A stretch of 64,000 bases of DNA from Promethearchaeota archaeon (GTDB taxonomy: Archaea; Asgardarchaeota; Heimdallarchaeia; Hodarchaeales; Hodarchaeaceae). The notes beneath the pieces were generated by a model that saw only the letters and a list, made by a program, of their open reading frames with translations, was not told the DNA's origin and made no database searches. Positions 7,356 through 28,240 of this stretch are shown here, piece after piece. The stretch covers positions 64,001-128,000 of the forward strand of contig JBHLMN010000012.1 in the NCBI GenBank assembly GCA_048938105.1, given 5' to 3'. Numbering within the stretch: position 1 is the first letter of the stretch; each line of letters opens with the position of its first letter. The position numbers and the translations under genes were made by a program.

Positions 7356-7360
7356 TCATT

Positions 7361-9340: not shown

Positions 9341-9621
9341 ATTGTTTGGCCCTCATTATTGAATTATATAGTTCAGACAACTAGGAAGTGTTGTTTTATA
9401 TAAGTTCATTGAAGTCAGAATCATCTGGATCACTAGAAAAAAGCAGTATTCATTGTTGGCTGGCTCCAACAAAGAGAAAGGATTAGGCTATTCTACTGCA
9501 TTTGACCGCTTCATAATCATTTGAAGTGTCATGAAAACTTGTTTAAAGATACATTGTCTCCAAGTACGTTTCACTAATGTTTTTTGAAACTTTATTTCTT
9601 ATGTTAAATTTTTCAATACAA

Positions 9622-10425: not shown

Positions 10426-10941
10426 TCATCTTTCAACAACAATTGAAGATTTTTTAAACTTTCTAAAGGTGAATTATAAATATTTTTTAGAGGATTATTG
10501 CCAAATTATTATCTAAATAGAAAAATAGTTCTAAATAAGTCAAAAATGGTTTGTAAAATCATTAAAAGGTTTGTACCAATATCAATATGTAAATAAAGTA
10601 TACTATGAAGAATTGAGTAGATTTAAATGTTCACTCATAATATCACACAATTACTAAGATATAATTATTCAACAATACCAGAAATAAAACAGAGAAGAGT
10701 CTTATAAAGTCAATGAAAACCTAGAGCATGATTTATAGAGGATTGTTATCTCAAGATTCCTTTATTTCCAAAGACAAATAGAAAGACATATTGAACTTCT
10801 AATCTCCTGAAATATACCTTTTTTAGTGAGAAAAATTAATTGAAATGATTCATGATTTTTAGGATTTCCCGCGAAATATATATTGATCTGATATAAGATT
10901 TCCTATCTATTCAATTTTATCAGCCTTGATTGTTCCAATAT

Positions 10942-11337
10942 TTAATCAAGATTGCTTAATGTCCTAATATAAGGAGTAATAGCCTGTTCAAATTTATTAA
11001 GATTTTCTCCTAGATTTAATAATTCTGTGAAAATCAAGCTTAAGGCGTTTCTAAATTTCTTTTCTTTTTTAGAAAGTAAAGGTTTGTCCATAATATTGAA
11101 GTAAAGATTTAGAAATTCTTTTAAGATTTCATTATATACTACCTCGCCTTCAAAAGATTTGTACTGAGTTTTATATTCATTTATCAAAATTTCAAGTATC
11201 TTTAGCTGATTCTGTTGCTTCCTTTCCCGACGTGATTTCCAAATCTCATAAAGAACCCCAATAAGAGGGGGAATAGTCCCTAAATTAATAACTGAAGTAC
11301 TTATCCAAAAAATGTCTTGACTCATCAAAATCACCAA
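10942..11337 (-). CDS. Hypothetical protein with N-terminal TM anchor
   Basis: Hydrophobic N-terminal segment followed by basic KSRRERK and a helical domain. Confidence 0.55.
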   Translation of the reverse strand: MVILMSQDIFWISTSVINLGTIPPLIGVLYEIWKSRRERKQQNQLKILEILINEYKTQYKSFEGEVVYNEILKEFLNLYFNIMDKPLLSKKEKKFRNALSLIFTELLNLGENLNKFEQAITPYIRTLSNLD

Positions 11338-11466
11338 AAAGAGTATTTAATTATAGTGAATCTATCATTTCTTGTACATATTTATGAATATTGATTAATA
11401 ATTCCTTTTGAGCTAAGCAAATTTTTTAAATTATAAACAAGCAAAAAAAGTTATATTTGACTGGGG

Positions 11467-13593
11467 ATGTTTTTAATGACAATAAAGATTGGAGACCTAA
11501 ATAGTGAGATTTTAGAGCGAGTTGAAAATTACTTCAAGAATTTAAGAGGTTGGGGGTCCTTATTTGTTAAAGATCCTACTGATGCTGAATCAATTGAAGA
11601 GATAATTTCTGAATATGAAGAATTAGAAAAGAAATTTGTGAATTTCTACGGGGATGCTTTGAAAAATCTTAATGGTTTCAGTAATATGTTGTTATGGGGA
11701 AGAAGGGGAACTGGAAAGTCCACATATCTCACAAAAGCGTTTTTTCAACAAATTTACCAATTTAAAGGAAGAAAAAGAAATGTCCCCATTTTTATAGACT
11801 GTAATTTGTTGTTTAAAGAGGATTTAGAGGAGAATCTTCTGAATATCTCATATTTTTATGCAGGTTTAAAATCTCAGATTGTAAAATCATTATTGTTGTT
11901 CCAAAAAATCCTTCATCATTTTAATAAAAAGAATTTAGTAAGTTTAGATGAAGATGAATTAAGTTGTATCAAATTCAAAGGACCAGAGTTTGAAACTGAA
12001 GATTTCAGTGAAGATTTGGCTAGGAATAAGTATGATTTATTTCTTGAGAAATATTCTCAACAGCTCTATAACAACATTCAGAAAGAACAACCAATGAATT
12101 TTGATAGTATCCTGACCTTTCTTGTTGAACTCAAAAGACAATGGCAAGTACATGGTTTTATTTTCTATATAGATGAAGTTTCTGAATTCTTTATAGCTAA
12201 AGGGCATTTTAAAGAAAGTGTTCGAAATTATTTTTTAGATTTCATATCTAGGGCCATTTTGAATTACAGCAGTTTGATGGTTTTCAAGCTAGTTTTATAT
12301 CAAGAGGCTGATTTTGAGTACCTTCAACGAGGTGCTCCAAAAGATGTTAGAGTTCATCGTAAATACTTTAATTCTTTTGCTGCTCTGGATTTATTTGATG
12401 AAAACAAATATTTTGGAAGAAAAATTGGAATAAAAGGAACCTCGATAAAACGACAATACGAATTGGATTTAAACAAACATATTGATGCCATCTTTAATAA
12501 GGCTTCAAATGATTGGAATCGAATCATTGCTGACTTTGAAAAGAAAGAAATTCAAAACAAAATTTATAAGTATCTTCGTGAAAGTACAGGAGGAACGATT
12601 AGAGAATTAGGTTTCATAATCTCAGAGGCAATAAAACAGTCTAAAGAAAATAAGACCAGACCGATTAATGTTACCATTCCTAATTTAAGAGCTGCTATTA
12701 TTGCTCACTATAAAAAAATCAATACTTCACTATTGACAAAAGAAATTAAATTAATGGAGGAAGTTATAAGCACGAAAAAGAAAGATAGAGACCCTAATAT
12801 ACTTTATTTTACTGATCGAATTAATAGCTCTGATTATAAGCCTCTAGATAAGAATAATGTTGAAAAAGTCTTTAAACATAATTTTTTAGCAGAATTAGAG
12901 CAAAATTTCATTATAAATATTGTTTCAATGTTAAAAACCAATGGAAATACCGAAACAATTTTTGTTTTTCATCCTGGATATGCTTTTCAAAATACTTGGC
13001 CTGATAAAGATATTGAGTTTAATAGTAACTATTTAAGGCATAATTCAATGCATATTGCACTAAATTTAAGGTATAAAAACTCATTTTCAAAGTATTTCAA
13101 GAATTATATTGAAGAAATAGAAGTGGAAGAACAATCCATAAAGAAAAAATATCTAAATATTATAAAAGAGGGTCTTCTAAAAAAAGGGGAAAGTTTAACC
13201 TCAATTGAGAGATTTATCTTTCCTAGCTTGAAGAACCAATCAATTTATGGTCTAAAACTCTTTTGTGAAGAAGTTGGTATTGCATTAACTACAGAGTCTG
13301 ATGAAGAAGTAGCAGTAGAAGTTCCAGATCTTCCGATCGAATACGATGATGAAGAGAAATGGTTCGATGCATATTTAGAACGTGCGAGAAAAAAATTAAT
13401 CAGAACTCAATATTTAAAAGATTATCTAAAAATATTAGAAATAATAAATAATAAAGAAAAGGCTACTTTCGAGGATATTGGCGATGAACTTAATATCAGT
13501 TATCCTGTAAGCCGGAGAAAATACTTTATAAATTTTTTAAAGAAGAAATCGCTGATAAAAGAAATTGATGGAATTTTTCAAATAAAACGTTAA
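11467..13593 (+). CDS. STAND/ORC-CDC6-like P-loop ATPase with C-terminal winged HTH
   Basis: LLWGRRGTGKS (Walker A), FIFYIDE (Walker B), STGGTIRE (sensor-2-like); C-terminal ATFEDIGDELNIS...FLKKKSLI HTH. Confidence 0.75.
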   Translation: MFLMTIKIGDLNSEILERVENYFKNLRGWGSLFVKDPTDAESIEEIISEYEELEKKFVNFYGDALKNLNGFSNMLLWGRRGTGKSTYLTKAFFQQIYQFKGRKRNVPIFIDCNLLFKEDLEENLLNISYFYAGLKSQIVKSLLLFQKILHHFNKKNLVSLDEDELSCIKFKGPEFETEDFSEDLARNKYDLFLEKYSQQLYNNIQKEQPMNFDSILTFLVELKRQWQVHGFIFYIDEVSEFFIAKGHFKESVRNYFLDFISRAILNYSSLMVFKLVLYQEADFEYLQRGAPKDVRVHRKYFNSFAALDLFDENKYFGRKIGIKGTSIKRQYELDLNKHIDAIFNKASNDWNRIIADFEKKEIQNKIYKYLRESTGGTIRELGFIISEAIKQSKENKTRPINVTIPNLRAAIIAHYKKINTSLLTKEIKLMEEVISTKKKDRDPNILYFTDRINSSDYKPLDKNNVEKVFKHNFLAELEQNFIINIVSMLKTNGNTETIFVFHPGYAFQNTWPDKDIEFNSNYLRHNSMHIALNLRYKNSFSKYFKNYIEEIEVEEQSIKKKYLNIIKEGLLKKGESLTSIERFIFPSLKNQSIYGLKLFCEEVGIALTTESDEEVAVEVPDLPIEYDDEEKWFDAYLERARKKLIRTQYLKDYLKILEIINNKEKATFEDIGDELNISYPVSRRKYFINFLKKKSLIKEIDGIFQIKR

Positions 13594-13640
13594 AAGAACC
13601 ATTTCTACGAATTAACCAAAGCCCCTAGGAAAAAAGCAGA

Positions 13641-14141
13641 TTGGTTGGTAAGAGAATAGCAAGTGATTATTATGTCCATCGAAAATATGTAAACAAAATT
13701 CAAAAAGAATTATTTATATTATATGAATTGGCCAAACTTGAATTATCACCTGAACAAGAAAAGAGCTGGAATATTTTAAAAGTTAACAAGAGGGAAAAGA
13801 GAGTTTCATTTTTGGAGTATCCAAAGTTTGATATTGATGCCCATCCAGAGTTAAAACACAGCATAAGCGTTAATCTATCAAAGTCTCCTCCAATTATACG
13901 GATAACACGAGGACGAGGGTATATTCTTCACAGGAAGGAGTTATTTATTGATAAGGACTACCCATTATACGCTAAATTTCATGAACTCACAAAAAAAGAG
14001 GAGGAATTCGGTCTTCTAGACGCCAAAATTGTTTTTAAAGGAAAAAAATTAGGGACTTTAATGGGGAGAAAGAAAATTTGGGAAGAATGGTTATCGTACA
14101 ACAATATAAAAATCTTAGATCATGAAATTGAAGTAGAATGA
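13641..14141 (+). CDS. Stand-alone non-catalytic domain of the DNA phosphorothioation-associated putative methyltransferase family (TIGR04096-like)
   Basis: VGK...YVH, VSFLEYPKFDIDAHPEL, ILHRKELF...YPLYAKFHELTKKEEEFGLLD, G...W...L..H match the terminal domain of that family as I recall it; no SAM motif. Confidence 0.75.
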   Translation: MVGKRIASDYYVHRKYVNKIQKELFILYELAKLELSPEQEKSWNILKVNKREKRVSFLEYPKFDIDAHPELKHSISVNLSKSPPIIRITRGRGYILHRKELFIDKDYPLYAKFHELTKKEEEFGLLDAKIVFKGKKLGTLMGRKKIWEEWLSYNNIKILDHEIEVE

Positions 14142-14174
14142 GATTTAGAAGGTGCCTAAAGCTTGACCTGATGG

Positions 14175-15023
14175 ATGGTGAAAAAATTAACAGATTTTCC
14201 TTGGAAGAAAGTCCTTGAAACTGCTGAAATCGATTTAATATCTTGGGAAAGAGTTAGTCCATTAATTAAACATGAAGTGTTTAAGGAATTAAATTTACAA
14301 CCAAAGAATTACATCCCAATATACTCTGAACAGGAACGACAACGAAAATTAGGAACAACTCAAAATATTTGGCCTTTTCGCACAGGAAAAGGTGAATGTG
14401 TTCTTATTCGGGGGAATATGAGTGTCAAGAATACTTACCAAAGTCCAAATACAAAACTAATATTACTCGAAGAAACATGCATTCCAAAATCATGTTCTTT
14501 GGGAAATTCTAAAACGGAGAGAGAATATTTAGCTCAAGGATTTAATTCTCGGGTATTTCATCAACTTTTAATAAATGAGAGTAAGAAAGAAGTATTTCTT
14601 GGAAGCGCTGGCAAACTATACTTGAATGCAAAAGTTCAGTATCATTCCGTTCCTATTAAGTTGAAGAATGTTCAATTTGAACTTGATTGGACTGTGGAAA
14701 CAAGAAATGAAGTTTTACATTTTGAGGCGAAATACTCACCTAAAAAACCAACACCTGAATATATTTTATTTCAAGTTTTTTATCCGACGGTTTATTTAAG
14801 CGAAAAGGTAAAGAATAAAACTATACGACCGTTTTTCCTTGATATTATAAAGGGCCATGGTTTTGTAGATTATCATTTCATGGAGATAGGATACGATGAT
14901 ACATTGAATTTATCTTCTTATAAAGTAGTACCAATCCAAAATACAACAATTCGTGTTAGCTTATCAGACCAACGGTTTCCAAACTTGATGAGTTATATAA
15001 ATACAAATCGTACAAGAAAATAA
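14175..15023 (+). CDS. PD-(D/E)XK restriction-endonuclease-like protein (DUF6997-like)
   Basis: QFELDWTVE...LHFEAK...FQVFYP resembles the QxExD...EAK...QLYYP pattern. Confidence 0.6.
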   Translation: MVKKLTDFPWKKVLETAEIDLISWERVSPLIKHEVFKELNLQPKNYIPIYSEQERQRKLGTTQNIWPFRTGKGECVLIRGNMSVKNTYQSPNTKLILLEETCIPKSCSLGNSKTEREYLAQGFNSRVFHQLLINESKKEVFLGSAGKLYLNAKVQYHSVPIKLKNVQFELDWTVETRNEVLHFEAKYSPKKPTPEYILFQVFYPTVYLSEKVKNKTIRPFFLDIIKGHGFVDYHFMEIGYDDTLNLSSYKVVPIQNTTIRVSLSDQRFPNLMSYINTNRTRK

Positions 15024-15341
15024 ATTTCCAAAGGGAAGATAAATAGTTATGTGGCCTTACAACAGTAATTTGTACTACAGTTGAGAATGGGTTTCTAAGT
15101 TATTTTAATTTTCCTTTAAGAAAAATTAATGAGTTTAAAATGAAAATAGATCATCAGATATTAAGTATTATAAGATTTCATAAAAATAAGCAAAAATAAC
15201 TTTATTATGAACATGATCAGCTACCTTTCAAATCGATTATAAATAAGATAGGTAAAATCTAGGTTAGAGATATGATGGAGAGTTTTTTAGCTTGAATGAA
15301 AAAATTTACAAATACTTACATTCCTCAGGGATTCACTTACT

Positions 15342-15791
15342 TATGAAGATCCTGGGATACATGAAAAACTTGAATAGTCATTTCAGTCTATATTGAGACT
15401 CAATAGATTATTTCGGGAAATTGAAAGAAAATAAAAAAAACCACTGTGATCATTTATGGATTCCATTTTTGTATTAATCAATTTTATAGAAAACGAAAAC
15501 AGAAAAAAAGAATTACTATATCTCGTTGGAGCCCACAAAGAGGCAATAATAGAATTAGATGTAAAATTAACTGGTATGCAGAAAGAAAGAAGCAAAGATT
15601 TCAAACCCTGGTTAATTGTAAAAAATAACACTCGGGGAATCTATTTAATAAATAAAATAATGAAGAAATTTGATCCCTGGGTTTCACTCTGGAAACAGAC
15701 TCCAATTTATCCTCATCAAATCCCAAAAGAAATAGTGGAGGTTGAAAGATGGGATCAAAACCTAGAAGAAAAGATGTTAAAAATAATGTAG
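15342..15791 (+). pseudogene. Probably 5'-decayed hypothetical gene (residual 111-aa ORF 15456-15791)
   Basis: The same frame reads protein-like upstream (YEDPGIHEKLE*SFQSILRLNRLFREIERK*KKPL*SF) with stops at 15375, 15432 and 15447. Confidence 0.4.
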
Positions 15792-15910
15792 ACAAGCAAA
15801 TTGAGAAACTTATCCACAAAGATGTTTTTAAAATTCTAAAACAAGGAACCAAAGCTTCAGAAAAAGAAGCAGAAAACAAAATAGATAACTTCATAAGAAG
15901 CTTGGATTAG
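15749..15910 (+). CDS. Small 53-aa protein immediately upstream of SMC ATPase (not in ORF track)
   Basis: GGAGGT SD-like motif 6 nt before ATG; MGSKPRRKDVKNNVDKQIEKLIHKDVFKILKQGTKASEKEAENKIDNFIRSLD*; stop 9 nt before the SMC start. Confidence 0.55.
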   Translation: MGSKPRRKDVKNNVDKQIEKLIHKDVFKILKQGTKASEKEAENKIDNFIRSLD

Positions 15911-15919
15911 GGAATCTTT

Positions 15920-17812
15920 ATGGATGACTGGGAGTTAACTGTTGAAAATATCGGGTGCTTTGTTGGAAAACATTCTTTTCTTTTTAAACAAGGTACAAAT
16001 GTGGTTATTGGGCCTAATGCTATAGGGAAGACGAGTTTGTTGCATGCATTCCAATTATTAATACCTCTGGATTCAAACATCATAGATACGAACATTTTGA
16101 ATTCTTCGTCAATGATTGGACATGTTCGCTTACAAAATGGTAATGATTGTTTTTTTATTGATATAGGGAGACGATCAGACGGTACTGTATGTGTTACCAG
16201 AAAAAAGAAGTTATTAACTGCGAACGAATTTGCTAAACAAGTTATTTTCTTAACAGAAAGCCACGAAATAATGGAAGCGGTGATAAAAGGAGATTTTAGT
16301 ATTTTAAAGGACTGGTTTGTGAGAATAACAGATTTAAACCTTTACCAAAAGGCTTATGGAGCTTGTATGAGGTTAGATTCTCGTTATAGAGACCAAAAAG
16401 ATCAGGAATCAAAACAAATACTAAAAGAGAAACATCGCTTACGCCAAGAACAGAAAAATATGCTTTCTGAAATTCGCAAAAAAAAATCAGTATTCAAAAA
16501 ATATCAGCTTGCATCAATTGCAAAAGAATTTGATTCTGAGCTTGTAACTAAATTTAGAAAGATTTCCTCCGAATTAGAAAGAATAAATAATGAATTGAAC
16601 AAATTAAAATTGGATAAAAATGTCTTAAAGACTCAACTCCCAAAGCTAACAAAGGATAAAGAAAATTTTCAATTAAAACTTTCAAAAATAGGAGAGAATT
16701 TTGAATCTGCAAAAGATCATGTTCAATATCACAATAATGAACTACAAAAGATTGACAGTGAAATTAAGCAGAAAAAATCTGTCCTTAATAAGATAAATAG
16801 AGAAATTTCACGATGTGATATTCTTATTTCGAATTTTATAAACACATTGGATGAAAATATAATCGAATGTTTGCACTGTGGTTCTGTGATATCGCAAATA
16901 CAATTAACCCAAAAACTAAGAACTATAGAAGATGAAAAAATTCATTTTGCAGAACAAAAATTAGAATTAACCAATTCAATATCTGAATTCCTAAATAATA
17001 GAAAAAAACATGAAGAACAACTTCAGGATATTAAAGTAGGACTTCCCAAAGAAGAAAAGGAACTTAGAAAGAAAATCGAAAGCACAAAAAACAAAATAAA
17101 TCGGCAAAAAAAGAAATTAACCGAACTCCAGAAAAGAATAGCGAGTAAAAATGAAGCATTAGACGAAATACAACTTATCTTTGAAAGTCTTCAGGGTCAA
17201 GTGCTGGAAAAATCCGAAAAGAAAAGCGAAATAGAACGCATGGAAAACGAATTACAAGGCGAACTCAAACATATGGAGAAGAGCTTAAGTAGGATCCAAA
17301 GTGACTTAACAAGAACAGAAACCCAGCTTTTAATGCTTAAAACATTTGATATAAAAAGAAAAAATCTGAAAAAAGTAATATATTTTGTCCAAAAAGGCAT
17401 TAAATCAATCCAAGAAAATATCTTGGACAAGATTAACTATCATCTTAACCAAATAATCACTGAATTGGATATACCATTTTTATCATCAATTAAGCTCGAT
17501 GATGATTTCAATCTGAAAATTGTTAGGAAAACAGGGGTACTTGGAGAATTTAGAGAACTTTCTGGTCTTGAAAAAAGATTAATTGCGATTCTTGTTGGTT
17601 TTTCAATAAAAAATGCACTCCTACAAGACTTTCCATTCTTTATTATTGATGAGACATTATATTCTGCAGATGATGAAAGTTTCGAGCAGATTATAAATTA
17701 TATTGGGCAAAATATAGATCTTTTGATTGTAACCCGATTAGGTACAAATCCAGATATTCAAAAGGGCGTATTGAATCAACAGAATATAGTTTATATGGAG
17801 AATGTGGCATGA
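15920..17812 (+). CDS. Rad50/SMC-like ABC ATPase with CxxC zinc hook (Sph/DndD-like)
   Basis: VENIG, GPNAIGKTS (Walker A), long coiled coils with central CLHCG, LSGLE signature, FFIIDE (Walker B). Confidence 0.85.
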   Translation: MDDWELTVENIGCFVGKHSFLFKQGTNVVIGPNAIGKTSLLHAFQLLIPLDSNIIDTNILNSSSMIGHVRLQNGNDCFFIDIGRRSDGTVCVTRKKKLLTANEFAKQVIFLTESHEIMEAVIKGDFSILKDWFVRITDLNLYQKAYGACMRLDSRYRDQKDQESKQILKEKHRLRQEQKNMLSEIRKKKSVFKKYQLASIAKEFDSELVTKFRKISSELERINNELNKLKLDKNVLKTQLPKLTKDKENFQLKLSKIGENFESAKDHVQYHNNELQKIDSEIKQKKSVLNKINREISRCDILISNFINTLDENIIECLHCGSVISQIQLTQKLRTIEDEKIHFAEQKLELTNSISEFLNNRKKHEEQLQDIKVGLPKEEKELRKKIESTKNKINRQKKKLTELQKRIASKNEALDEIQLIFESLQGQVLEKSEKKSEIERMENELQGELKHMEKSLSRIQSDLTRTETQLLMLKTFDIKRKNLKKVIYFVQKGIKSIQENILDKINYHLNQIITELDIPFLSSIKLDDDFNLKIVRKTGVLGEFRELSGLEKRLIAILVGFSIKNALLQDFPFFIIDETLYSADDESFEQIINYIGQNIDLLIVTRLGTNPDIQKGVLNQQNIVYMENVA

Positions 17813-19677
17813 GTCCTTTCAAATGGTGTTTAAATTGTCATATTCCACTCATTCAAAGTAAATGTGGGAATTCAAGACCTATACCCCATAAAGTAGTAGA
17901 TTTCATTTCTCGAGTGAAACCTGTTGGTAAAAAAGAGTATCAAATGTATAAAGCCCTTTTTGTTAACAATTCTGATACTGAAAGTGAATATACGATAGAG
18001 GATGAATCTAAGAAGGATAGAGCGAAACGTTTTCCCAAGATTCTTTATCGAAGTAGAAATCTACTATATTCTGAAATGTCAGAAGGAACACCTCATTTTA
18101 AGATATTATTACAGAGAGAAAATGATATTGATAATTGGGGATTAACTAATCGGAATATTATACTTCATGATAATAAAAATTACTTTAAAAGGTCCGAATA
18201 CAAAAAAATTAATGAATACTTCTGGACCGATCCTGAATATCGGAAGAAATTAATTGAAGGAAACAAAGAACGACTTGTGAAACTAGAGGAAAAGGCGCTT
18301 AAATTTATTCGTTGGGTTTACAAAAAAAAGAAAGAATCTAAGGTTTTTGTTTCTTTTAGCGGAGGTAAAGACAGCGCGGTAACTGCATATCTAACAAATA
18401 AAGCATTGTACAAAGAATTAGGTAGTGTTCCATTACTTTTTTCAAATACTGATATTGAATACCAAGAAACTGTGGACTATGTAAGAAAAAGAGATCTTGG
18501 TGAGGTTATAGAAGTAAAATCAAAGAATAAATTTCTTGATTTATGTGAAAAATTAGGTCCTCCAAGTCGCACTATGCGATGGTGTTGTTCAACACAAAAA
18601 GCATCACCAGTTAATCAATATTACTCGACAATAAAGAGTGAAATTTTAAGTTTTGACGGTATAAGAAGAGAAGAATCAAATTTAAGAGCTGAATATCCTC
18701 GACACCATCAGAATACGAAGCTACAACGCCAATATAGTGCTTATCCTATTTTAGATTGGTCTGAAATAGAGGTTTGGTTATTTACGCTTTGGCGTAATAT
18801 CCCTCTAAATCCCCTATATGATGAAGGTTTTGCTAGAATCGGATGTTGGGCTTGTCCAAATAACGGTCTATTTGATACATTTCTTTTCGAAAAAATTAAA
18901 CCCGAAATGGCTGATTATTGGTTTAAGAAGCTACGAACTTTCTCAGAGTCAATTTCTAATGAATACGATCACAAATATAAACATGATTGGATTTATCAAG
19001 GAAAATGGAAAGGACGGCGTGTAAAATATCATAATGAGTTAATTGGGGAAATTTCCCAACAAGATTCAAGCTTTGAGAACTTTGATATTGTTGATCCTGC
19101 AGAGGCAATATCAAAATATGATGAATTTCATGATGAAAATTCATTTGAGAATGAATCTAAGCCATGCAGCCAGACCAGTGTAATGGTTGTTTCATTGGAT
19201 CGCCCCTTAAAAGAAGACTCATTCGAATTTCTTAAAATTTTTGGGGATTCTAAACGTATTCTAATTGGAAATCAAACTTTGGTCAAGATAGAAGGACAAA
19301 AATATTCAATTCAGTATGTTGAAAATTCTAACAAAATTAAATATAAAATCCTAGAAAAAGAGAAGAATGAAAGAAACATATTACGTAATAGATTGATTCG
19401 TCAAATAAATAAATCTTTCAATTGTATTAAATGTGCCTCATGTGTTGGTCTTTGTCCTAAAGGAGCGATTAGTGTTATAGTTAACAGATACCAAGTAGAT
19501 TCAAGCAAATGCATTAATTGTTTAAAATGCACTTCGAGCAATCTGCTGAGTATGGGTTGTGTAGCCCTTCATTATAAACCTGATAGACTTTTAGTTGATC
19601 GAAATGTCACGAAACCGTCTTTAAAAGTGAGACATGATTCAGAAATGGTTACTGAATCTCAATTACTTACTACATAG
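17809..19677 (+). CDS. PAPS/APS-reductase-family PP-loop protein with C-terminal 4Fe-4S ferredoxin domain (DndC/SspD-like sulfur-insertion enzyme candidate)
   Basis: N-terminal WCLNC...C, SFSGGKDS, RWCC, GIRREES, RIGCWACP, CIKCASCVGLCP, CINCLKC; ATGA overlap with the SMC stop. Confidence 0.85.
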   Translation: MSPFKWCLNCHIPLIQSKCGNSRPIPHKVVDFISRVKPVGKKEYQMYKALFVNNSDTESEYTIEDESKKDRAKRFPKILYRSRNLLYSEMSEGTPHFKILLQRENDIDNWGLTNRNIILHDNKNYFKRSEYKKINEYFWTDPEYRKKLIEGNKERLVKLEEKALKFIRWVYKKKKESKVFVSFSGGKDSAVTAYLTNKALYKELGSVPLLFSNTDIEYQETVDYVRKRDLGEVIEVKSKNKFLDLCEKLGPPSRTMRWCCSTQKASPVNQYYSTIKSEILSFDGIRREESNLRAEYPRHHQNTKLQRQYSAYPILDWSEIEVWLFTLWRNIPLNPLYDEGFARIGCWACPNNGLFDTFLFEKIKPEMADYWFKKLRTFSESISNEYDHKYKHDWIYQGKWKGRRVKYHNELIGEISQQDSSFENFDIVDPAEAISKYDEFHDENSFENESKPCSQTSVMVVSLDRPLKEDSFEFLKIFGDSKRILIGNQTLVKIEGQKYSIQYVENSNKIKYKILEKEKNERNILRNRLIRQINKSFNCIKCASCVGLCPKGAISVIVNRYQVDSSKCINCLKCTSSNLLSMGCVALHYKPDRLLVDRNVTKPSLKVRHDSEMVTESQLLTT

Positions 19678-19685
19678 ATTTAAGT

Positions 19686-21884
19686 GTGAATCATATGCCT
19701 TTAGCTTTAAACATTGGTTATACTCCAGCACAGATAGATTTTTTTGACAGAAAATTCAATAAAATCAAAGAATATATTGATTTCGTAGATATTAAGTCCT
19801 CATTCCTAGTACAAAGAAACTCTATTGCCTCTATTGTACGAGCTTTAAGTTCCAAAAGTATTCGAGCATTTCTAGAAAGTGGTGGATTTTTTAATTTAAA
19901 TTTTGATGTGCCTAGAGATAGTAATTATATACCTGTTAATTCCACAAAATCCAAGAATAATTTCTTAGACTTTATAACTGAATTCAGTGACACACCTGCT
20001 TATTTCCAAGATAGTTGTAATAATCTAATCCTCCCAGTGATTTTAGATGGTGATAGTTCATTAAATCATCAGTACAAAAATTCTCTTTCGAATTTTATAT
20101 TAAATAATCTAAATAAAATTGATCGAATCTTCGATAAGCTCCTGATTAGATATCATTTTATAAAAAACAATTCAGAAATTGAATATTATATTAACGAGAT
20201 TGAAAGATACGAGGGGGATTATAAAAATAATATTAAGGAAAGTTTTTCTTTGTTTCTCAATATACCAGAGTGGCATCAGAAATTAGGGCAAAAAAAAACT
20301 CTACAATTATTGAGAAAACTTCGAGACACTGGTAGGAAAGTAGAAGTTTACCAAATTGCCGACTACCAGATCATAGATAATCAGGTACATTCTAATATAA
20401 CCATTGGTGAGGGGAGAATATCTTGGAGACCTTTCCTCAGTTACTTTAAAAATTCAAACATATTACTAGCAACAAAAGACGGCATTTCGTCAGTAAAAAA
20501 AAGTATGGCGCATTTAGGGGAAATTTCGATTAACAAGAAAGATAGAATTGATGGGAATTCCGTTGTTACGGGATTCTTTTTTTCTAGGGATAAAAAATCA
20601 TTCTTTCAATCGTCACCTGGTACAAAAATGGCATTAAAGTATATTAAGGACAATAAAATTAATGTAAACTCGATTCTAGATTTAGGTTGTGGAAATGGGA
20701 GGAATTCTTTTTATCTATCAAAAAATATAGATGCGAAAGCACATCTAATAGATATTGACAGAGATTTGTTAAACTATGTTAAGCTTAAATTCAAAACTTT
20801 TAATGTTAAAACTCCAGAGATAGAGGTAATAGATCTGGAAAATTTCGACCTATCACTTTTTAATACTAAATATGATATTACACTGCTTAGTTATGTGCTT
20901 CAGAATATATTTCCTGCTAATTATTTCAAATTGATGGATTTCTGTAGGATTATAACAAGAAAACTAATGATTTTCGAGATCTATGTCAATTTAAATGTTT
21001 ATCCAGAAGGAATGGTTACAAAACGAGGAGAGACTTTTTGGTATGGCTTTTCAAGCGATGAAGTCTTTAAATTATTTGAATCCTTTTTCGACGTAATAGG
21101 ATGGGATGTGAAAAAAGGAAAAGCGAATCCTTTAATGATTTCAATTGTTGGTAAACCGAGGGATACTGTAACAAATGGGGAAAGTATTTTAAGGCGGTAT
21201 AATAACATACAAACAGTTGACTATAGCTCAATAAGAAAGATTTATCCCAAGAAACAGGTTTCAACTAGAAAAAAAGTAAAAACAATTAGTTCTACAAAAA
21301 GAAAAGAGAGAATGATTGATAAAACTAACACAGATCATTGGAGGATACTATCCTCTCATTTATTGTCTACTGGATTGAGTAAAACTCAAATCAGTGTTTT
21401 GGAGTCAAAACTAGAAGAACTTGATTCATCATATAAACTAAAAGCTCCAGAAAATTTTGGTGCCTTACTTTTTTTAGTTGCTAGATTAAATCGCATTCCG
21501 ATTCATCTACAAGAGATTGTCAAGATTCTTGATGTTCGTAGGAAAGATATTCATCGTACAATGAAAGAAATTCAATATAGACATAATATCGCACGTAATC
21601 TTCCAAGTTTAGAAGCTTTTTTTGAACGATATTTTACAATTTTAAATCTAAATGAAATTTACGAAAGATCTCCTTCAGAGATCATTGAAGAAATAAAGAA
21701 TAATTATAACTGTAACCTTCTGGGATCCTTGCCTCACATATCAGCTCTAGCTATTGCAATACATCTTTTACGGTCTTCTGATAAAAGATCTAACCCTTCT
21801 CAGCTTGCTAGAAAAGTGTATATTTCCCCCTCTTCTCTTAAAAACAAACTTAGATTATTAGAAGGTATTCAGCTGGTTCAGTAA
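19686..21884 (+). CDS. Fusion: degenerate TIM-barrel + class I SAM methyltransferase + TFIIB/TFB cyclin-fold core
   Basis: ITIGEGRISW (AP-endonuclease-2-like TIM C-terminus); ILDLGCGNG, LIDID, YDITLLSYVL; C-terminal two cyclin repeats (GALLFLVARLNRIPIHLQEI...; GSLPHISALAI...SQLARKVYISPSSLKNK). Confidence 0.7.
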   Translation: MNHMPLALNIGYTPAQIDFFDRKFNKIKEYIDFVDIKSSFLVQRNSIASIVRALSSKSIRAFLESGGFFNLNFDVPRDSNYIPVNSTKSKNNFLDFITEFSDTPAYFQDSCNNLILPVILDGDSSLNHQYKNSLSNFILNNLNKIDRIFDKLLIRYHFIKNNSEIEYYINEIERYEGDYKNNIKESFSLFLNIPEWHQKLGQKKTLQLLRKLRDTGRKVEVYQIADYQIIDNQVHSNITIGEGRISWRPFLSYFKNSNILLATKDGISSVKKSMAHLGEISINKKDRIDGNSVVTGFFFSRDKKSFFQSSPGTKMALKYIKDNKINVNSILDLGCGNGRNSFYLSKNIDAKAHLIDIDRDLLNYVKLKFKTFNVKTPEIEVIDLENFDLSLFNTKYDITLLSYVLQNIFPANYFKLMDFCRIITRKLMIFEIYVNLNVYPEGMVTKRGETFWYGFSSDEVFKLFESFFDVIGWDVKKGKANPLMISIVGKPRDTVTNGESILRRYNNIQTVDYSSIRKIYPKKQVSTRKKVKTISSTKRKERMIDKTNTDHWRILSSHLLSTGLSKTQISVLESKLEELDSSYKLKAPENFGALLFLVARLNRIPIHLQEIVKILDVRRKDIHRTMKEIQYRHNIARNLPSLEAFFERYFTILNLNEIYERSPSEIIEEIKNNYNCNLLGSLPHISALAIAIHLLRSSDKRSNPSQLARKVYISPSSLKNKLRLLEGIQLVQ

Positions 21885-21889
21885 CAATT

Positions 21890-23125
21890 GTGGTAAATAT
21901 GGATCCATATGAATTTAGAAATTCTATTCCTCTTCTACGAAACAATCCAGATATCGTCTATTTAGATTCAGCTACAACTACATTAATTCCTGATACTGTA
22001 ATACAACGAATGAAAGAATTTTATGAAGAAATTGGGGTCATTCCAAATCGTGGAGCTTATGATTTAGTACTTCAATCAAATAAGACTTTAAATAAGGTAC
22101 GAAATAGTGTCTCGAATTTTTTTAATGTTGATTTTAATAGAATCGCCTTCACAACGAGTACTTCACATGGTTCTGCAACAGCGATCGCTGTTACAAACCT
22201 TACAAAGAAAGATAGAGTTTTATTTGCATCAAATTTACACAATTCGTCATTTTTAAATTGGTTTAGATTTGTACAAAAGAACTCAATAAATTTTGACTTC
22301 ATTAAATTGAATAAAGATGGTCAAGTCTTAATAGATGATTTAGAAGATAAAATTTCTCTGAAGATTCCCGGTAGAACAATAGTAGTTTTAGATCATGCAC
22401 CAATGGGTTTTGGTACGTTATTAAATTTAAATGTTGCATCAGAGGTAATACATAACACAAAAGATTCATATCTTTTTCTTGATGCTACTAGAACAGCTGG
22501 CTTAGTAGATTTAGATATATCAAGAGAAAATATTGATTATCTTGTCTGTCAAAGCCATGTGGGATTCTTTGCTCCTCCTGGAACAGGGATACTTATCGTT
22601 CCAGAGGAAGTTAATGGTGAACCATGTTATATAGGTTCAGGATCTGTAATTGACACTTCTAAAGAGTACTATCATTTATCCCCCTATCCTAATAGTGTTG
22701 AAATTGATAGTGTTAATATTGGAGGTTTAGTTGGATTAGAAGCTGGTATAAAATTGCTTAATGAAATTGGGATAAATGAAATCAGAAATCATTGTATGAA
22801 ATTAATCGAAATCTTCTGTAAAAATGTAGAAATGAGTGATGATATTCTTTTATTTGGATCATCTGATCCTTTAAGTCGGTCAAATTTACTTAGCATTAAA
22901 TTTAAAAATATAAGCTGTCATGACCTTGCCTTTTATGTTCATGAATTGGGAAAAATTTGTGTTCGATCTGGAAGTCTTTGTAGTCATCTACTTATTAGAG
23001 AAATTAATTCTAATATTAATAATGGATTTACACAATTCTCATTTAACTATTATAATACGGAGTTGGATTTAAAAAAAGCAATTGAAATTCTCAACTCAAT
23101 AAATATGAAAAAAAAAGAATTATAA
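21890..23125 (+). CDS. SufS/DndA-like cysteine desulfurase homolog, PLP-lysine substituted
   Basis: VYLDSATTT, AFT.STS, LDATR, PPGTGIL, VRSGSLCSH (Cys364). QSHVG stands in place of SGHK. Confidence 0.8.
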   Translation: MVNMDPYEFRNSIPLLRNNPDIVYLDSATTTLIPDTVIQRMKEFYEEIGVIPNRGAYDLVLQSNKTLNKVRNSVSNFFNVDFNRIAFTTSTSHGSATAIAVTNLTKKDRVLFASNLHNSSFLNWFRFVQKNSINFDFIKLNKDGQVLIDDLEDKISLKIPGRTIVVLDHAPMGFGTLLNLNVASEVIHNTKDSYLFLDATRTAGLVDLDISRENIDYLVCQSHVGFFAPPGTGILIVPEEVNGEPCYIGSGSVIDTSKEYYHLSPYPNSVEIDSVNIGGLVGLEAGIKLLNEIGINEIRNHCMKLIEIFCKNVEMSDDILLFGSSDPLSRSNLLSIKFKNISCHDLAFYVHELGKICVRSGSLCSHLLIREINSNINNGFTQFSFNYYNTELDLKKAIEILNSINMKKKEL

Positions 23126-23136
23126 TGTGAAACTCT

Positions 23137-25335
23137 TCATAATTTCATAAGGAGATTGTTAATATCAAATAATTCTTTCATTAATTCATGCTTGTTTTCT
23201 GCATAATCTGCGAAGAAAGTAATTCTTTGATTTTCAATTCTAATTATGTTTTTTGCTAGTCTTGGATGTCTTTCCATTTGATTTGAATTTGGTAGGACTA
23301 TTATATCATAGATTACAACTGGTTCTTCCTTTTTTTTGTTTTTTCTTAGTATTCTACCAGCTCTTTGAATATGTTCTAATGCGGATCCTGAGCTTGCCAT
23401 AAAGATTGCTTTTTCCAAACATGGTATGTCTACGCCTTGGTCTAGGCATTTCATTGCAATTAGTGTATTTATATCTTTATTTGCTAAATTGTTAATATAG
23501 ATTTGCCTTTCTTTGTTATCCATGTTACCATCAATCAGATTAAAACTAATTTTAAACTGTTTTTGTGAATACAATTCCATAATAACGCTTCTTACATCTC
23601 GTGTAATATGCTCTTTATCTCTACAATATATTACACATTTCTCGAACTCTTTCTTATTGATTAAGTCAAGTATGATCGATTTTAAAACTTTTCTTTTGTG
23701 CTTACATTTTTTTATTATATCTGCTCTTTGATTGAGTAATATGGTTCTATAATCCTCTCTTGCTATGCCCCTAATTTTACTTATTTGTGTTGATAAATCT
23801 TCATATTGTTTGATATCATTATCGTCAAAATAACATTTGAAAATTTTGTACTCAAATTTACAGACAACGCCAAGCTCTTGAGCATCTTTCAGCGTTAGTT
23901 CATACAGATCCCTATTTTCATTAAGAAACCAATCAAGTATTTTTAGAGTTCCTTCCTCATCAAAATGTCTTTGAGGAGTAGCACTAAGACCAATTTTATA
24001 GTCGGGGTTAAAATTTTCCATTAAAAATATTCCTGTAGGTGTTCCAAGGCTATGTGCTTCGTCGGCAATAAATAAAACCCTTGATCTCTTGCTTAATCCT
24101 TTTTTATTAATAACCTCTCTATTTAAAATCTCGGGTTTAAGCGATTTGTATGTTCCAACTATATAGCAGTGATCTTGCTCTAATAGCAGTATTTTATCTA
24201 TGTGATTCCGTAGTTCTTTCTTCCAAGTAGGGTTCTCATGGTAGCATTTGATAACATATTTCGAATATCTATTTAATTCTTTATACCATTGATCAACTAA
24301 ATATCTATCAGGAACCCCAATAATAGTTATAAGTTTTAATCCTTCTTTCTTAAGTTTTAAATATAAATTATAACTAGCAAAAATCGATGTTTTAGTTTTT
24401 CCTGTTCCTGTTGCCATTGCAAGAAATCCAATGAACTTATTCTTATCCAAGTGATCCAATGCATCTCTTTGAGGTTCCCATGGTTTATCTTTCTCGATGT
24501 TGGGTATTAATAACCCTTCAGTGAAATTCCAAGTAGAATTCTTGCTAAATTCCTCAAACAATTTGTAAAAAGAAGTGGTTTTTATGTGTTCATTAAAAAC
24601 GTGATCAAAATGAGAAAAATTTATTTTATTTAAATCTTTAGGTTTGTATTTTGAGATAATATAATCTTTTAATCCTTTGGGAAAAGAAGAAACTTTAAGA
24701 CATGAATCTTTGTTATCCCAATATAATTGAAATTTCTCAAAATCCAATTGTGCATATTTTTTTGTATCATCCCAACTTCTAAACGTTTTTATTTCTTCAC
24801 GATTTTGTGACCAAGCCATATAAGTCATGTTTGAAGAACCTGAAAACGAAATATAATCTTGACCATCACTCAAAATCCCAATCTTTTCGTGTAAAATCCT
24901 CTCGAATAATAATTCCGATATTTTTTCTTCTGTACTAAATACTGGAATTGCAAATTTGATTTCTATTCTATTATAGTACAATAACCAGGCTAATAATTTA
25001 TAATGTTCATCTAGATCAGACCTTAAATTTATTTGATTAAGAAAATCCTCCTTGAGGATCTCTTCAAAATTCTCTGCTAACTCATTTCTTGCCATTAAAA
25101 GTAAATTTAATTCCTGATTTCTTGGAACTCCAATGATGATTTTTATTTTTCCATTATTTTTTTGGATAAAATTATACAATCCGTAAAATAATGGAATAAA
25201 AATCTTTGCTGAAAAATATCCAGTAATATACCAAAATTTTTTTGATTCATTGAGTACAGGTACTAAAAATTCATCAAAAAGGTTATCCCAACCCGTTGTA
25301 TAACTAATTTTGAGTTCCAAGTCCCTTAAAGGCAA
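23137..25335 (-). CDS. pbeA: PLD nuclease + SF2 DEAD/DEAH helicase (PbeA / dnd-system restriction enzyme type)
   Basis: TGYFS, LHEKIGILSD (HxKxxxxD), SGSSN, MATGTGKT, DEAH, LSATP, QGVDIP, QRAGR. Confidence 0.75.
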   Translation of the reverse strand: MPLRDLELKISYTTGWDNLFDEFLVPVLNESKKFWYITGYFSAKIFIPLFYGLYNFIQKNNGKIKIIIGVPRNQELNLLLMARNELAENFEEILKEDFLNQINLRSDLDEHYKLLAWLLYYNRIEIKFAIPVFSTEEKISELLFERILHEKIGILSDGQDYISFSGSSNMTYMAWSQNREEIKTFRSWDDTKKYAQLDFEKFQLYWDNKDSCLKVSSFPKGLKDYIISKYKPKDLNKINFSHFDHVFNEHIKTTSFYKLFEEFSKNSTWNFTEGLLIPNIEKDKPWEPQRDALDHLDKNKFIGFLAMATGTGKTKTSIFASYNLYLKLKKEGLKLITIIGVPDRYLVDQWYKELNRYSKYVIKCYHENPTWKKELRNHIDKILLLEQDHCYIVGTYKSLKPEILNREVINKKGLSKRSRVLFIADEAHSLGTPTGIFLMENFNPDYKIGLSATPQRHFDEEGTLKILDWFLNENRDLYELTLKDAQELGVVCKFEYKIFKCYFDDNDIKQYEDLSTQISKIRGIAREDYRTILLNQRADIIKKCKHKRKVLKSIILDLINKKEFEKCVIYCRDKEHITRDVRSVIMELYSQKQFKISFNLIDGNMDNKERQIYINNLANKDINTLIAMKCLDQGVDIPCLEKAIFMASSGSALEHIQRAGRILRKNKKKEEPVVIYDIIVLPNSNQMERHPRLAKNIIRIENQRITFFADYAENKHELMKELFDINNLLMKL

Positions 25336-25370: not shown

Positions 25371-25898
25371 TTATTGTTTCTCTTTAATATCATCTTTTAT
25401 TTCGTCTTCCCACTCAATAAGGTTAAAATCTTCGAGTAACTCCGAGTCTGGTGCATCAGCAAGACATATTAATTTAAAATTCCTTTCTCGTGGTAAATTC
25501 CATCCTCCCTTGAAATATTCTTCTGCAATTCGTGAGCATTCACTAAGATCCAACAAAATTTTGTGAATATAATCTCGTTTTTCTTCATTTCTCCCAATTT
25601 CATCCAACATATGACCATAAGCAATTGTTTTTAATATAAAGCCCACTTCTTCACGATCTGATAGTGATGGTACGTTAACGGAATCAGTTTTTTCACGTTT
25701 ACTCCTAGGTAATTCTTTAGGTGATCTACCATTTGCGAATGAGCGAGTAACGCCAATTATAAATCCATCTATTAACCTATTTTTGAAGGAACATTGTTGA
25801 TATCTCTTTTTTTTATCTTTAATCTCTTTTAATATGTCATTAGCCTCAATTTCTAAGTATATATTCCTGTATAAAGTCTGTTTTTCCTTTTTTGACAT
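25371..25898 (-). CDS. dnd-associated protein 4 / PbeD-like
   Basis: C-terminal RIAEEYFKGG resembles the EEYANGG motif of dnd-associated protein 4; lies directly downstream of the CxC ATPase. Confidence 0.55.
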   Translation of the reverse strand: MSKKEKQTLYRNIYLEIEANDILKEIKDKKKRYQQCSFKNRLIDGFIIGVTRSFANGRSPKELPRSKREKTDSVNVPSLSDREEVGFILKTIAYGHMLDEIGRNEEKRDYIHKILLDLSECSRIAEEYFKGGWNLPRERNFKLICLADAPDSELLEDFNLIEWEDEIKDDIKEKQ

Positions 25899-25899
25899 G

Positions 25900-27990
25900 C
25901 TATTTCCTCACTAATTTAGCATTATCATTTTTTGGATTTTCTATTTCATATTTTATTCCAATTTTTTGGTCAAAAATTGGTCTTAAATCTTCTATTTCAT
26001 TAATATCAGGTTTAGTGGCAAGTAAATTATTTTCCTTAGCAAAGAAAATAATTTGATTCCCTGAATATATTCCTGGTAATTTTTCGACAACTTGTTTTCG
26101 AGTTTCTGAGTCGATATTCCCAAAAGGAGAGTCAAAAATTAAAGGTAATTCGACATCTAGTACTTTTGCCAATGAAGATATAAAGGACATTCCTACAATA
26201 TTAGTTTGACCAGTCGATGTATTCATAATTTTTGAACCAGAACTAAAGATGGCCTCAAAAATCCATCCTTTTCCAATATCTTTTATGTTTAATGACAACC
26301 AATTTTCTGGATCTCTTACTAAAGTTTTTAATGTCTCTAAAGTTTCTTCCTCACACTTTTTTCGAATAACTTCAGCTACATTCTCTTCAATTTCAGAAAT
26401 TATTTTTAAATAAAATTCAGTTAAAGATCTACATTTTTGATAACATTCAGACTTGTCAGTAGATTTATCTGTTTCAGATACCATTTTATTATATTGTTTT
26501 TCCGCGTTTAGCTTATCATTTTTGATGTTATCAATTTCCATAAGGTAGTGCAGTTTATCTTGTTCAATTGATCCGATTAATTGATCTCCCAAAGAAATTT
26601 GATTTTCTAAATCTATAATTTCTTGATACCATTCTTCTGATTGTTCTTCAGGTGTTAATTTCGTTTTTAGTACATCAATTTTTGTTTTTATTTCAATAAC
26701 CTCTTGATTTATTTTTAGAAATTCCTTTTGATTTTCTAAAATGCTTTGTTTCCCAGTCTTAAGCAATTTTAACTTTGCTCCTAATTCTGCTTCAAATTTA
26801 ATTGCAGTTTCCCCTAAAATACTATTATCAGCCTTTTTTAGTATTTTATTTATTCTTGCCTTCATTTCAGTATTCCAAGGAGTTCCACAAACACAAGATC
26901 CATGTCTTTCTAATATTGTTTGAAGTACCTCTGATGTAAGTTTTCCAGGAATAATGTCTTTTTCTCTTTTCTCCTTAATATCCTTTAAAATCCTTTTCAT
27001 TGTTTGTTCTAAATATAGAATCGGTAAAAATTGCATCAATAACCTTTCTCGCCTCTCGATGATCTGATCCCTCCTTATTGCTTTCTCCTCTAATTTTTGA
27101 ATCAAATTATTATAGTCTCTTACGAAATCAATCTTACCTTGAACATTTTGTCTTCTGTTCCTTAATTCAGCTAATTCTGATCTTCTAATTTCTAGTTCAG
27201 TTATCTTCTCTGCTACTTTTGTTTCCAATTCTTTTTTCTTTTTTCCAAAATTTTCAATTTCCTCTTTCTTATCCTTTAATTTCTTGCCTTTGGCAGTCAC
27301 AGCTAAGTATTTATTTTGGAAGTAATTACTTGCTCTATCAAGATAAACTTGCAAAGTTTTTATTTTTGGATAATCTGAAATATCCAATGAATAATTTTTC
27401 AAATTCCCTACATTCTCAATAGATAATAAATGATTTAATCCTTCACCAAAAATGAACACGAAATCCCTCATTGATCTAGGAAAATATTTGTTAATCAAAT
27501 TTAAATATATTTCATCTGGATTTGGTACTTTTGATGCATTTTTATAGATTAACTTTCTTTCTGATTTCTTCAATTTTCCATTAGCAAACTGTATCCCTTT
27601 AGCGGTTTTCTTAAATTTTATATATCGATGTAATTCTAAAAAATTTAAGTTTCCAGAACGATCAATTTGTTCAAGTTCAATGCATCCCCCAACTTCAAAA
27701 CTGTTACCTACCTCTATTTTTCTTTTTACTACAGAGTTGGCTGCTTCTTTAATATTATGATCAGTAAAAAATTTGAGTTCCTTTAGCATTTCTTTCTCAT
27801 CAAATGATGGGAATAAAATCCAGTACATTAATTGAAATATCGAACTCTTACCAGAACCTGTATCACCAAGAAACAAAGTTACATTTTTTTCTTTATCAAC
27901 GGAAAATAACATTTCGTGTTCTCCAACAAATGGACCGAAATTAAGAATTCTCATTTTTTTGAAGGTTAAGCGAGGATTTTGAACCAACAT
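25900..27990 (-). CDS. pbeC: DndD/PbeC-like SMC-type ABC ATPase with CxC hook
   Basis: NFGPF, GDTGSGKSS, coiled coils with CVCG, STGQ signature, LIFDSPFGNID. Confidence 0.7.
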   Translation of the reverse strand: MLVQNPRLTFKKMRILNFGPFVGEHEMLFSVDKEKNVTLFLGDTGSGKSSIFQLMYWILFPSFDEKEMLKELKFFTDHNIKEAANSVVKRKIEVGNSFEVGGCIELEQIDRSGNLNFLELHRYIKFKKTAKGIQFANGKLKKSERKLIYKNASKVPNPDEIYLNLINKYFPRSMRDFVFIFGEGLNHLLSIENVGNLKNYSLDISDYPKIKTLQVYLDRASNYFQNKYLAVTAKGKKLKDKKEEIENFGKKKKELETKVAEKITELEIRRSELAELRNRRQNVQGKIDFVRDYNNLIQKLEEKAIRRDQIIERRERLLMQFLPILYLEQTMKRILKDIKEKREKDIIPGKLTSEVLQTILERHGSCVCGTPWNTEMKARINKILKKADNSILGETAIKFEAELGAKLKLLKTGKQSILENQKEFLKINQEVIEIKTKIDVLKTKLTPEEQSEEWYQEIIDLENQISLGDQLIGSIEQDKLHYLMEIDNIKNDKLNAEKQYNKMVSETDKSTDKSECYQKCRSLTEFYLKIISEIEENVAEVIRKKCEEETLETLKTLVRDPENWLSLNIKDIGKGWIFEAIFSSGSKIMNTSTGQTNIVGMSFISSLAKVLDVELPLIFDSPFGNIDSETRKQVVEKLPGIYSGNQIIFFAKENNLLATKPDINEIEDLRPIFDQKIGIKYEIENPKNDNAKLVRK

Positions 27991-27994
27991 AGCG

Positions 27995-28240
27995 TTAGCT
28001 TCCTACTCCGTGTTTGATTTTACTCATCTTTTCTATTATTTGGTTATACATATGATCGATTTTTTGTTTTTTTGCTTTATTTTCCTCATAAGGCCATTCT
28101 TTTTCAAAATAAATAAATTCAAATAGCTCATTGAAGAAATTAAATGGATCACCTATTTCTTTTTTAACATCTTCAGGAATTACTTTCTCCCAAGTTGATT
28201 TATACTCATTTAATAGAGTTTTAAAATTAATTTTCTTCAT
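27995..28240 (-). CDS. Small protein upstream of CxC ATPase (PbeB-like by position)
   Basis: 81-aa ORF preceded by GGGGAAG, ending 4 nt before the ATPase start. Confidence 0.5.
   Translation of the reverse strand: MKKINFKTLLNEYKSTWEKVIPEDVKKEIGDPFNFFNELFEFIYFEKEWPYEENKAKKQKIDHMYNQIIEKMSKIKHGVGS

Follow-up and report, generated by a model that had tools for sequence, protein, structure and literature searches.

Models of DNA phosphorothioation by the Dnd, Ssp and BREX type 4 systems begin with a cysteine desulfurase that depends on pyridoxal 5′-phosphate (PLP). What, then, is the role of a dedicated and conserved protein that occupies the same slot and is predicted to be unable to perform this step? 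The question is raised by a gene in a 64,000-nucleotide stretch (the whole of which we call the window) of contig JBHLMN010000012.1 from a Promethearchaeota archaeon. This gene, at 21890-23125 on the forward strand, encodes a homologue of the desulfurase SufS without the lysine that forms the Schiff base with PLP, and we refer to its product as pseudo-SufS. Comparison of sequences and predicted structure argues that pseudo-SufS is a folded, selectively maintained SufS-type homologue that should be incapable of PLP-dependent cysteine cleavage. Its gene is the last of a tightly packed DNA-modification operon of the BrxP/DndC type, and we put at roughly 0.5 the probability that the protein acts as a PLP-independent persulfide relay, or as an iron-sulfur (Fe-S) ligand, for the BrxP-like enzyme of that operon. 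The new element is that, in a modification operon of an archaeon with links to BREX type 4 and Pbe, the sulfur-donor slot is filled by a SufS-like protein without the lysine.

The fold and active site of pseudo-SufS

The open reading frame (ORF) is stop-free for 411 codons from a GTG. The true start is probably the ATG at 21899 (408 residues), because the database copy and the orthologues begin there; residue numbers used here are those of the 411-residue frame, as in an earlier note on this DNA (the original prediction). The product is a class V aminotransferase (Pfam PF00266, Aminotran_5, 4.1e-61), and HMMER searches find its best solved relatives among the type II cysteine desulfurases (T. 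onnurineus 5b7s, 4.3e-42; B. subtilis SufS, 4e-33). It falls below all curated NCBIfam cut-offs (181.8 versus 475.1 bits for TIGR01979 sufS; 102.4 versus 661 bits for NF006791), scores 66.9 bits with the DndA model TIGR03235 (cut-off 480), and is matched by the PADLOC SspA and DndA models at about 1e-26 only. An AlphaFold2 model built from 144 sequences has a predicted local distance difference test (pLDDT) score of 96.8. When this model was compared with SufS-type structures using Foldseek, the template modelling (TM) score was 0.91 for 5b7u and 7ceo, with a root-mean-square deviation of 1.9 Å to 5b7u and a TM range of 0.90-0.91 across SufS structures. The predicted fold is that of an intact type II class V aminotransferase. 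A search of the ESM Atlas with the protein returned generic class V aminotransferase clusters only.

Within this fold, the cofactor and substrate site has been extensively altered, as is clear from a comparison with E. coli K-12 SufS (locus L037), which served as the reference for residue mapping. The Schiff-base lysine (K226) is replaced by Val224, encoded by GTG at 22559-22561 in the context C-Q-S-H-V-G-F-F. The glutamine that binds O3′ of PLP (Q203) is Arg201 (22490-22492), although Asp198 (D200) is kept three codons upstream; N175 is Met172 (22403-22405), the arginine that binds the substrate carboxylate (R379) is Gln382 (23033-23035), and S223 and T278 are Q221 and S274. The retained residues are R54 (R56), H117 (H123), D198, H223 (H225), R359 (R359) and C364 (C364). 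HMMER alignments to 5b7s and 5xt5 place QSHV opposite SGHK/SSHK, DATR opposite DAAQ/DGAQ and TQFS opposite VRAS/ARAS, while RSGSLC faces RSGHHC/RAGHHC. Codon and alignments thus bear out what the original prediction had read from the window, namely valine at the lysine position, glutamine for the substrate arginine, DATR for DGAQ, and a persulfide cysteine kept in RSGSLC.

Pseudo-SufS retains the persulfide-cysteine loop and residues that face the partner. The loop, R359-S-G-S-L-C364-S-H366, lies at 22964-22987 (Cys364 is TGT, 22979-22981). In E. coli SufS, R56 and R359 matter most at the transpersulfuration step (PMC11507941), and pseudo-SufS has both arginines (R54 and R359). It also has a His344-Asp345 pair (22919-22924), in which His344 aligns with His342 of B. 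subtilis SufS, a ligand of the Zn of the partner protein SufU (PMC8918507). Pseudo-SufS therefore shares with the SufS proteins of E. coli, B. subtilis and T. onnurineus (5b7s) the fold, the short type II cysteine loop, both arginines and the cysteine, and with the B. subtilis enzyme the histidine that contacts the SufU Zn. It differs from them in the replacement of K226, R379, N175 and Q203 and in having no suf operon; there is likewise no IscU, SufU or SufE neighbour at the locus.

A working cysteine desulfurase might still be imagined if free PLP were bound and another base took over from the lysine, given that Asp198, His117, His223 and the catalytic cysteine are all present. We regard this as highly improbable. 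The lysine, Arg379, Asn175 and Gln203 have been replaced together, and conservation at these four positions is 99-100% among 146 Lys-bearing relatives. The original prediction had allowed that a nearby lysine could substitute, but no lysine occurs in the segments that align with the cofactor- and substrate-contacting parts of SufS (residues 52-56, 89-96, 115-119, 168-175, 196-203, 219-226, 272-276, 357-366 and 380-384). The only invariant lysines in a five-sequence orthologue alignment, K106 and K258, are both outside these segments, and there is no conserved lysine column across the wider Lys-less family. Moreover, the only Lys-less homologue to have been studied, IscS of A. fulgidus (AF0564; PDB 4hvk, 4eb5), is inactive; it binds pyridoxamine 5′-phosphate (PMP) and donates a cysteine ligand to the cluster on IscU. 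For this protein and for M. acetivorans IscS1, sulfide is thought to be the sulfur source. Both resemble pseudo-SufS in having no Schiff-base lysine and a retained loop cysteine. Unlike pseudo-SufS, which is type II (SufS-like) and is encoded in a DNA-modification defence operon, they belong to type I (IscS/MisS-like) and have IscU as their partner in housekeeping Fe-S assembly.

The genome from which the window comes (assembly total 5.85 Mb) also encodes an IscS/NifS-like protein without the Schiff-base lysine (S-H-L) in which the cysteine loop is kept (G000:C27:42967-44064; L003 1351-2604, reverse strand). It is followed directly by a NifU/IscU scaffold gene (L003 942-1397), as in the IscS-IscU pair of A. 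fulgidus.

Conservation of the Lys-less state

Might the missing lysine simply reflect an assembly error or a decaying gene? The C-terminal quarter of the protein is unusually divergent, and BREX partner genes have been lost at the window locus, both of which could be signs of decay. However, the reading frame is full length, the structure is modelled with high confidence (pLDDT as above), and the C-terminal domain has all of the polar residues that are conserved in the family. Five orthologues from independent assemblies (51-59% identity), one of them from a 'Candidatus Hodarchaeota' metagenome-assembled genome, have threonine at the lysine position and keep DATR, Gln382 and the cysteine; the copy at a related locus, L040, has threonine as well. 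The substitution is hence not peculiar to one assembly. Pairwise ratios of nonsynonymous to synonymous substitution (dN/dS) among the orthologues are 0.11-0.31, which are rough values with synonymous sites near saturation (pS 0.59-0.74) but lie below 1. Error or decay is effectively refuted: the comparisons indicate that loss of the lysine is conserved and under purifying selection. The reading of the protein as a pseudo-desulfurase, put forward in the original prediction, is considerably strengthened by these results, with the lysine, the substrate arginine and several cofactor contacts replaced throughout a clade. A profile scan of genome contigs with the five-orthologue alignment found a single locus.

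The Lys-less state extends well beyond these orthologues. Among the nearest relatives of pseudo-SufS, represented by 168 clusters out of 1.84 billion proteins, the lysine is absent in 23 (the query counted), and these include the closest relatives of the query. Copies from Asgard genomes were added for a comparison of 50 Lys-less with 146 Lys-bearing sequences. The positions lost jointly in the Lys-less set, each 92-100% conserved in the Lys-bearing set, are (in query numbering, with SufS residues in brackets) S92, S171, M172 (N175), R201 (Q203), H223 (H225), V224 (K226) and Q382 (R379). In contrast, R359, G361 and C364 are 100% conserved in the Lys-less relatives, H344 and D345 98% (compared with 58% for H344 in the Lys-bearing set), and H366 88%.

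It is conceivable that the remodelled pocket now binds another ligand, such as non-covalent PMP or PLP or a small sulfur or nucleotide compound, and that pseudo-SufS has become a new enzyme or a sensor. Members of the operon clade share a strictly conserved pocket (NLHNS, DH(A/S)PM, DATR and Q221 are invariant), D198, H117 and H223 are retained, and A. fulgidus IscS shows that PMP can be bound without the lysine. Across the wider Lys-less family, on the other hand, the pocket varies (R/Y/N/Q at position 201, N/C/S/H at 223 and D/H/E at 117), which argues against a common new site in the family. We consider a new ligand to be a rather improbable explanation.

In a 59-row maximum-likelihood tree, the Lys-bearing rows form one clade (support 99) and the lysine trait requires only a single gain or loss, as read from an alignment that retained the lysine position together with those that change alongside it. 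The six-member clade of the window (support 100) adjoins two Lys-less proteins, P0022 and P0023, whose neighbourhoods are of a housekeeping archaeal kind and include genes for ribosomal proteins, CDC48 and a TtuA-like PP-loop protein. In a family belonging to the same class, matches occur in 27 of 31 genomes, and the copies extracted from 17 of those are all Lys-less, many of them in tandem pairs. These other Asgard proteins carry the signature of pseudo-SufS (HD, RSGxLC(S/A)H and VQxS, with N175, Q203 and K226 lost). They are chromosomal and often tandem genes in housekeeping contexts, whereas the window clade is sporadic and tied to a defence operon: a close orthologue is present in only one of 20 other genomes of the genus (two of 21 with the window's own), a distribution typical of mobile defence genes. 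Bacterial dnd and ssp clusters have captured copies of IscS and SufS. Similarly, the module in the window appears to have captured a copy from the already Lys-less SufS-like lineage of other Asgard genomes.

A conserved radical-SAM (S-adenosylmethionine) partner was considered for the housekeeping relatives and rejected: P0022 and P0023 have neighbours that are mutual orthologues (6e-54) but show no relationship to the radical-SAM gene found next door in family f4, and no family-wide gene partner emerged. In another family of the same class, locus L033 has tandem Lys-less SufS-like paralogues at 10182-11387 and 16973-18166, with similar arrangements in L016-L031. The paralogues differ at the substrate-arginine position, one having VQxS and the other VRxS. 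The L033 paralogues are separated by three ORFs, one of them a gene of 735 residues that has a Cas12f1-like TNB domain, and radical-SAM genes are found upstream. Within our incomplete coverage of the literature, we came across no publication that deals with type II SufS homologues lacking the lysine, or with a desulfurase of that kind in phosphorothioation or BREX systems.

A modification operon with an exchanged restriction half

The decisive context of pseudo-SufS, which the original prediction missed, is its place in a BrxP/DndC-type operon within a defence island. All genes of the operon are on the forward strand. Two conserved small ORFs (111 residues, 15456-15791; 53 residues, 15749-15910), found ahead of the ATPase at every related locus, come first; next is a 630-residue coiled-coil ATPase of the ABC/SMC type with a DndD-like role (15920-17812; NCBIfam ASRP, 244.7 bits; PADLOC matches to LmuB, PbeC and DndD). 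Its stop overlaps by 4 nt the start of a 622-residue BrxP-like protein of the phosphoadenosine phosphosulfate (PAPS) reductase/PP-loop type (17809-19677; PADLOC BrxP, 227 bits, 9.1e-68; Pfam PAPS_reduct, 1.7e-34, and Fer4 families), which carries SGGKDS, shows a CC...CxxC pattern and has a 2x[4Fe-4S] ferredoxin domain at its C-terminal end; a DUF4007 domain was not detected. A 732-residue fusion of a methyltransferase (MTase) and a transcription factor B (TFB)-like region comes next (19686-21884), in which a class I SAM methyltransferase, its GxGxG motif intact, is joined to a weak C-terminal TFIIB-like region; TIM-barrel matches to its N-terminal region were obtained in orthologues only. Beyond pseudo-SufS, and convergent with it across an 11-nt gap, is PbeA on the reverse strand (23137-25335; PADLOC PbeA, 499 bits; TIGR04095, 283 bits), a PLD/HKD nuclease fused to an SF2 helicase. 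The reverse-strand genes that follow (25371-28240) are a 175-residue protein in the PbeB position, PbeC (25900-27990), which is a CxC-type ABC ATPase (PADLOC PbeC, 141 bits; C-V-C in the translation), and, upstream of PbeC, an 81-residue ORF that is a candidate PbeD. The 175- and 81-residue ORFs are at the positions expected for PbeB and PbeD and neither matches any model; Pfam and PADLOC likewise gave nothing for the 111-, 225- and 53-residue ORFs.

The order of small ORFs, ATPase, PAPS reductase, MTase and pseudo-SufS is complete in three related contigs, and its 3′ part is seen in three shorter ones. In four related loci the operon is followed by BrxL, with PglZ and BrxC in three of those. 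One of these loci, L040, shares 85-88% DNA identity with the window over 10958-14148 and 15293-22794 (its counterpart of window 10958-22794 is at 2376-14179); the homology ends inside the pseudo-SufS gene and BREX genes follow. The restriction half has thus been swapped naturally, with the same operon joined to BrxL-PglZ-BrxC in L040 and to PbeA, PbeB and PbeC in the window. No BrxC, PglZ or BrxL gene adjoins the operon in the window, and no PglZ above the cut-off was found anywhere in the genome; the searches for BrxC and BrxL covered the window only. Two further metagenomic defence islands, L042 (7085-10818) and L043 (6126-9798), have PAPS reductases of about 40% identity, each after an ABC ATPase of about 640 residues and small ORFs; these reductases lie beside BrxC or Type ISP genes, with no desulfurase-like gene.

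Pseudo-SufS occupies the slot that DndA and SspA fill elsewhere, adjoining a PAPS reductase of the DndC/SspD/BrxP type and a P-loop ATPase, with BrxL, PglZ and BrxC in related loci. DndA is a PLP-dependent cysteine desulfurase (PMC10853773), which pseudo-SufS, without the lysine, is not expected to be. BREX type 4 systems rely on BrxP and BrxC to produce phosphorothioate DNA, and the host SufS has been presumed to act as sulfur donor (PMC12914056). A proposed sixth component of BREX-4 is a cysteine desulfurase 'closely resembling DndA', put forward in work whose text is silent on the PLP residues of that protein, and which describes a ferredoxin-type tail on BrxP (PMC12839542). The BrxP-like protein of the window shares this tail. 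In a Treponema plasmid cluster of PAPS reductase, DUF4007 and large ATPase genes, the slot is filled by a class V aminotransferase with HK, DMAQ and VRFS intact. This one bacterial counterpart that we checked has kept the lysine, glutamine and arginine, so that absence of the lysine is a departure from what is canonical for the slot.

How might such a protein serve the module? We propose that pseudo-SufS would be the DndA/SspA-equivalent subunit of a phosphorothioation-type module, together with the ABC ATPase, the BrxP-like PP-loop/[4Fe-4S] enzyme and the MTase-TFB fusion, and that this module would work with BrxL in related loci (and with PglZ and BrxC in three) and with PbeA, PbeB and PbeC in the window. 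Cys364, aided by R54, R359, H344 and H366, would take sulfur from elsewhere, which could be persulfide from the canonical SufS of the genome, or sulfide or polysulfide. It would then either pass this sulfur on to the BrxP-like enzyme, at its Fe-S/PP-loop active site, or ligate one of the clusters of that enzyme, a role for which A. fulgidus IscS offers a precedent. The idea in the original prediction that the protein is a sulfur carrier or scaffold, to which the retained residues and the gene context can now be added, is probably best kept as the most plausible reading. Its further suggestion that sulfide replaces cysteine as the source is not required, because a canonical SufS-family protein with the lysine is encoded elsewhere in the genome (G000:C2:41738-42874).

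The principal alternative to the relay or ligand role is that pseudo-SufS is purely architectural, its dimeric SufS fold holding the complex together or bridging to the restriction half while Cys364 handles neither sulfur nor metal. The part of the protein that lies beside the swapped restriction cassette is indeed the part that evolves fastest: the C-terminal domain is 34-37% identical between copies, as against 83-92% for the operon partners. In one Dnd system, moreover, IscS has been described as stably bound in a complex with DndBCDE (PMC11662687). This alternative nevertheless leaves unexplained why R359, G361 and C364 should be invariant, and H344, D345 and H366 88-98% conserved, in 50 Lys-less relatives of varied contexts. 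Chemistry at the loop is favoured over a pure scaffold because this conservation would otherwise be hard to explain, and we judge the architectural role unlikely.

Several observations weigh against a role for pseudo-SufS as relay or Fe-S ligand. D198, H117, H223 and T91/S92 are kept in the subclade, so that PLP or PMP may still be bound non-covalently. Protein identity between the window and L040 is 90% for the ATPase and the BrxP-like protein and 83% for the MTase but 56% for pseudo-SufS (73%, 59%, 58% and 34% by successive quarters), and this faster divergence could mean relaxed constraint or a variable-interface role. The core of ATPase and PAPS reductase occurs in other Asgard defence islands without a desulfurase-like gene, and one Methanosphaera BREX-4 likewise has none; pseudo-SufS is therefore accessory rather than obligatory. 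Finally, the tree that groups the Lys-bearing proteins was built with the lysine column in place. As for the divergent 3′ end, the C-terminal domain of the window protein is 35-37% identical to all other copies, and the single Pbe-linked copy is compatible either with a recombination tract that brought in Pbe and ended inside the gene or with a fast-evolving domain. The domain may also be the surface through which the modification half is fitted to its BREX or Pbe restriction partner.

If sulfur is still delivered, phosphorothioation-type modification would be fed without a dedicated cysteine-cleaving enzyme, and the Lys-less SufS-like family, common in Asgard genomes, would gain its first tractable read-out in the form of modified DNA, which LC-MS can quantify. 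If pseudo-SufS is only a scaffold, a desulfurase fold would, for the second time and independently of A. fulgidus IscS, have been preserved for its cysteine loop. A broader and on balance doubtful proposal is that Lys-less SufS-like proteins in general are PLP-independent donors, carrying sulfide or persulfide sulfur on Cys364, for Asgard PP-loop/[4Fe-4S] thiolation enzymes, one of them having been captured by a BREX type 4-like phosphorothioation module. Were this true, the operon would be a portable genetic assay for cysteine-independent sulfur trafficking.

Other genes of the island and genome

The first 29.4 kb of the window form a low-GC defence island, with a GC content of 29-32% to about 32 kb and mostly 36-40% beyond. 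Upstream of the modification operon, on the forward strand at 11467-15023, are genes common to L040 and the P0006 contig that encode a 708-residue protein, a 166-residue protein and a hypervariable DUF6997 protein. The 166-residue ORF (13641-14141) matches positions 323-475 of the 478 of TIGR04096, that is, its C-terminal third, and the catalytic part is absent; the model is named 'DNA phosphorothioation-associated putative methyltransferase'. The DUF6997 gene (14175-15023) has 24% protein identity to its L040 counterpart, compared with 72-92% for the flanking genes, and is thus hypervariable within a conserved cassette. Other upstream genes of defence type encode a fusion of a PD-(D/E)XK nuclease with a HerA/FtsK ATPase (1253-3415; PADLOC mad8-like), a trypsin-like peptidase (3683-4387) and an HD-CE protein (5219-6271). 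Elsewhere in the genome, a second PAPS-reductase gene (G000:C18:41948-42481) lies in a 688-residue open frame, on a contig with no class V aminotransferase.

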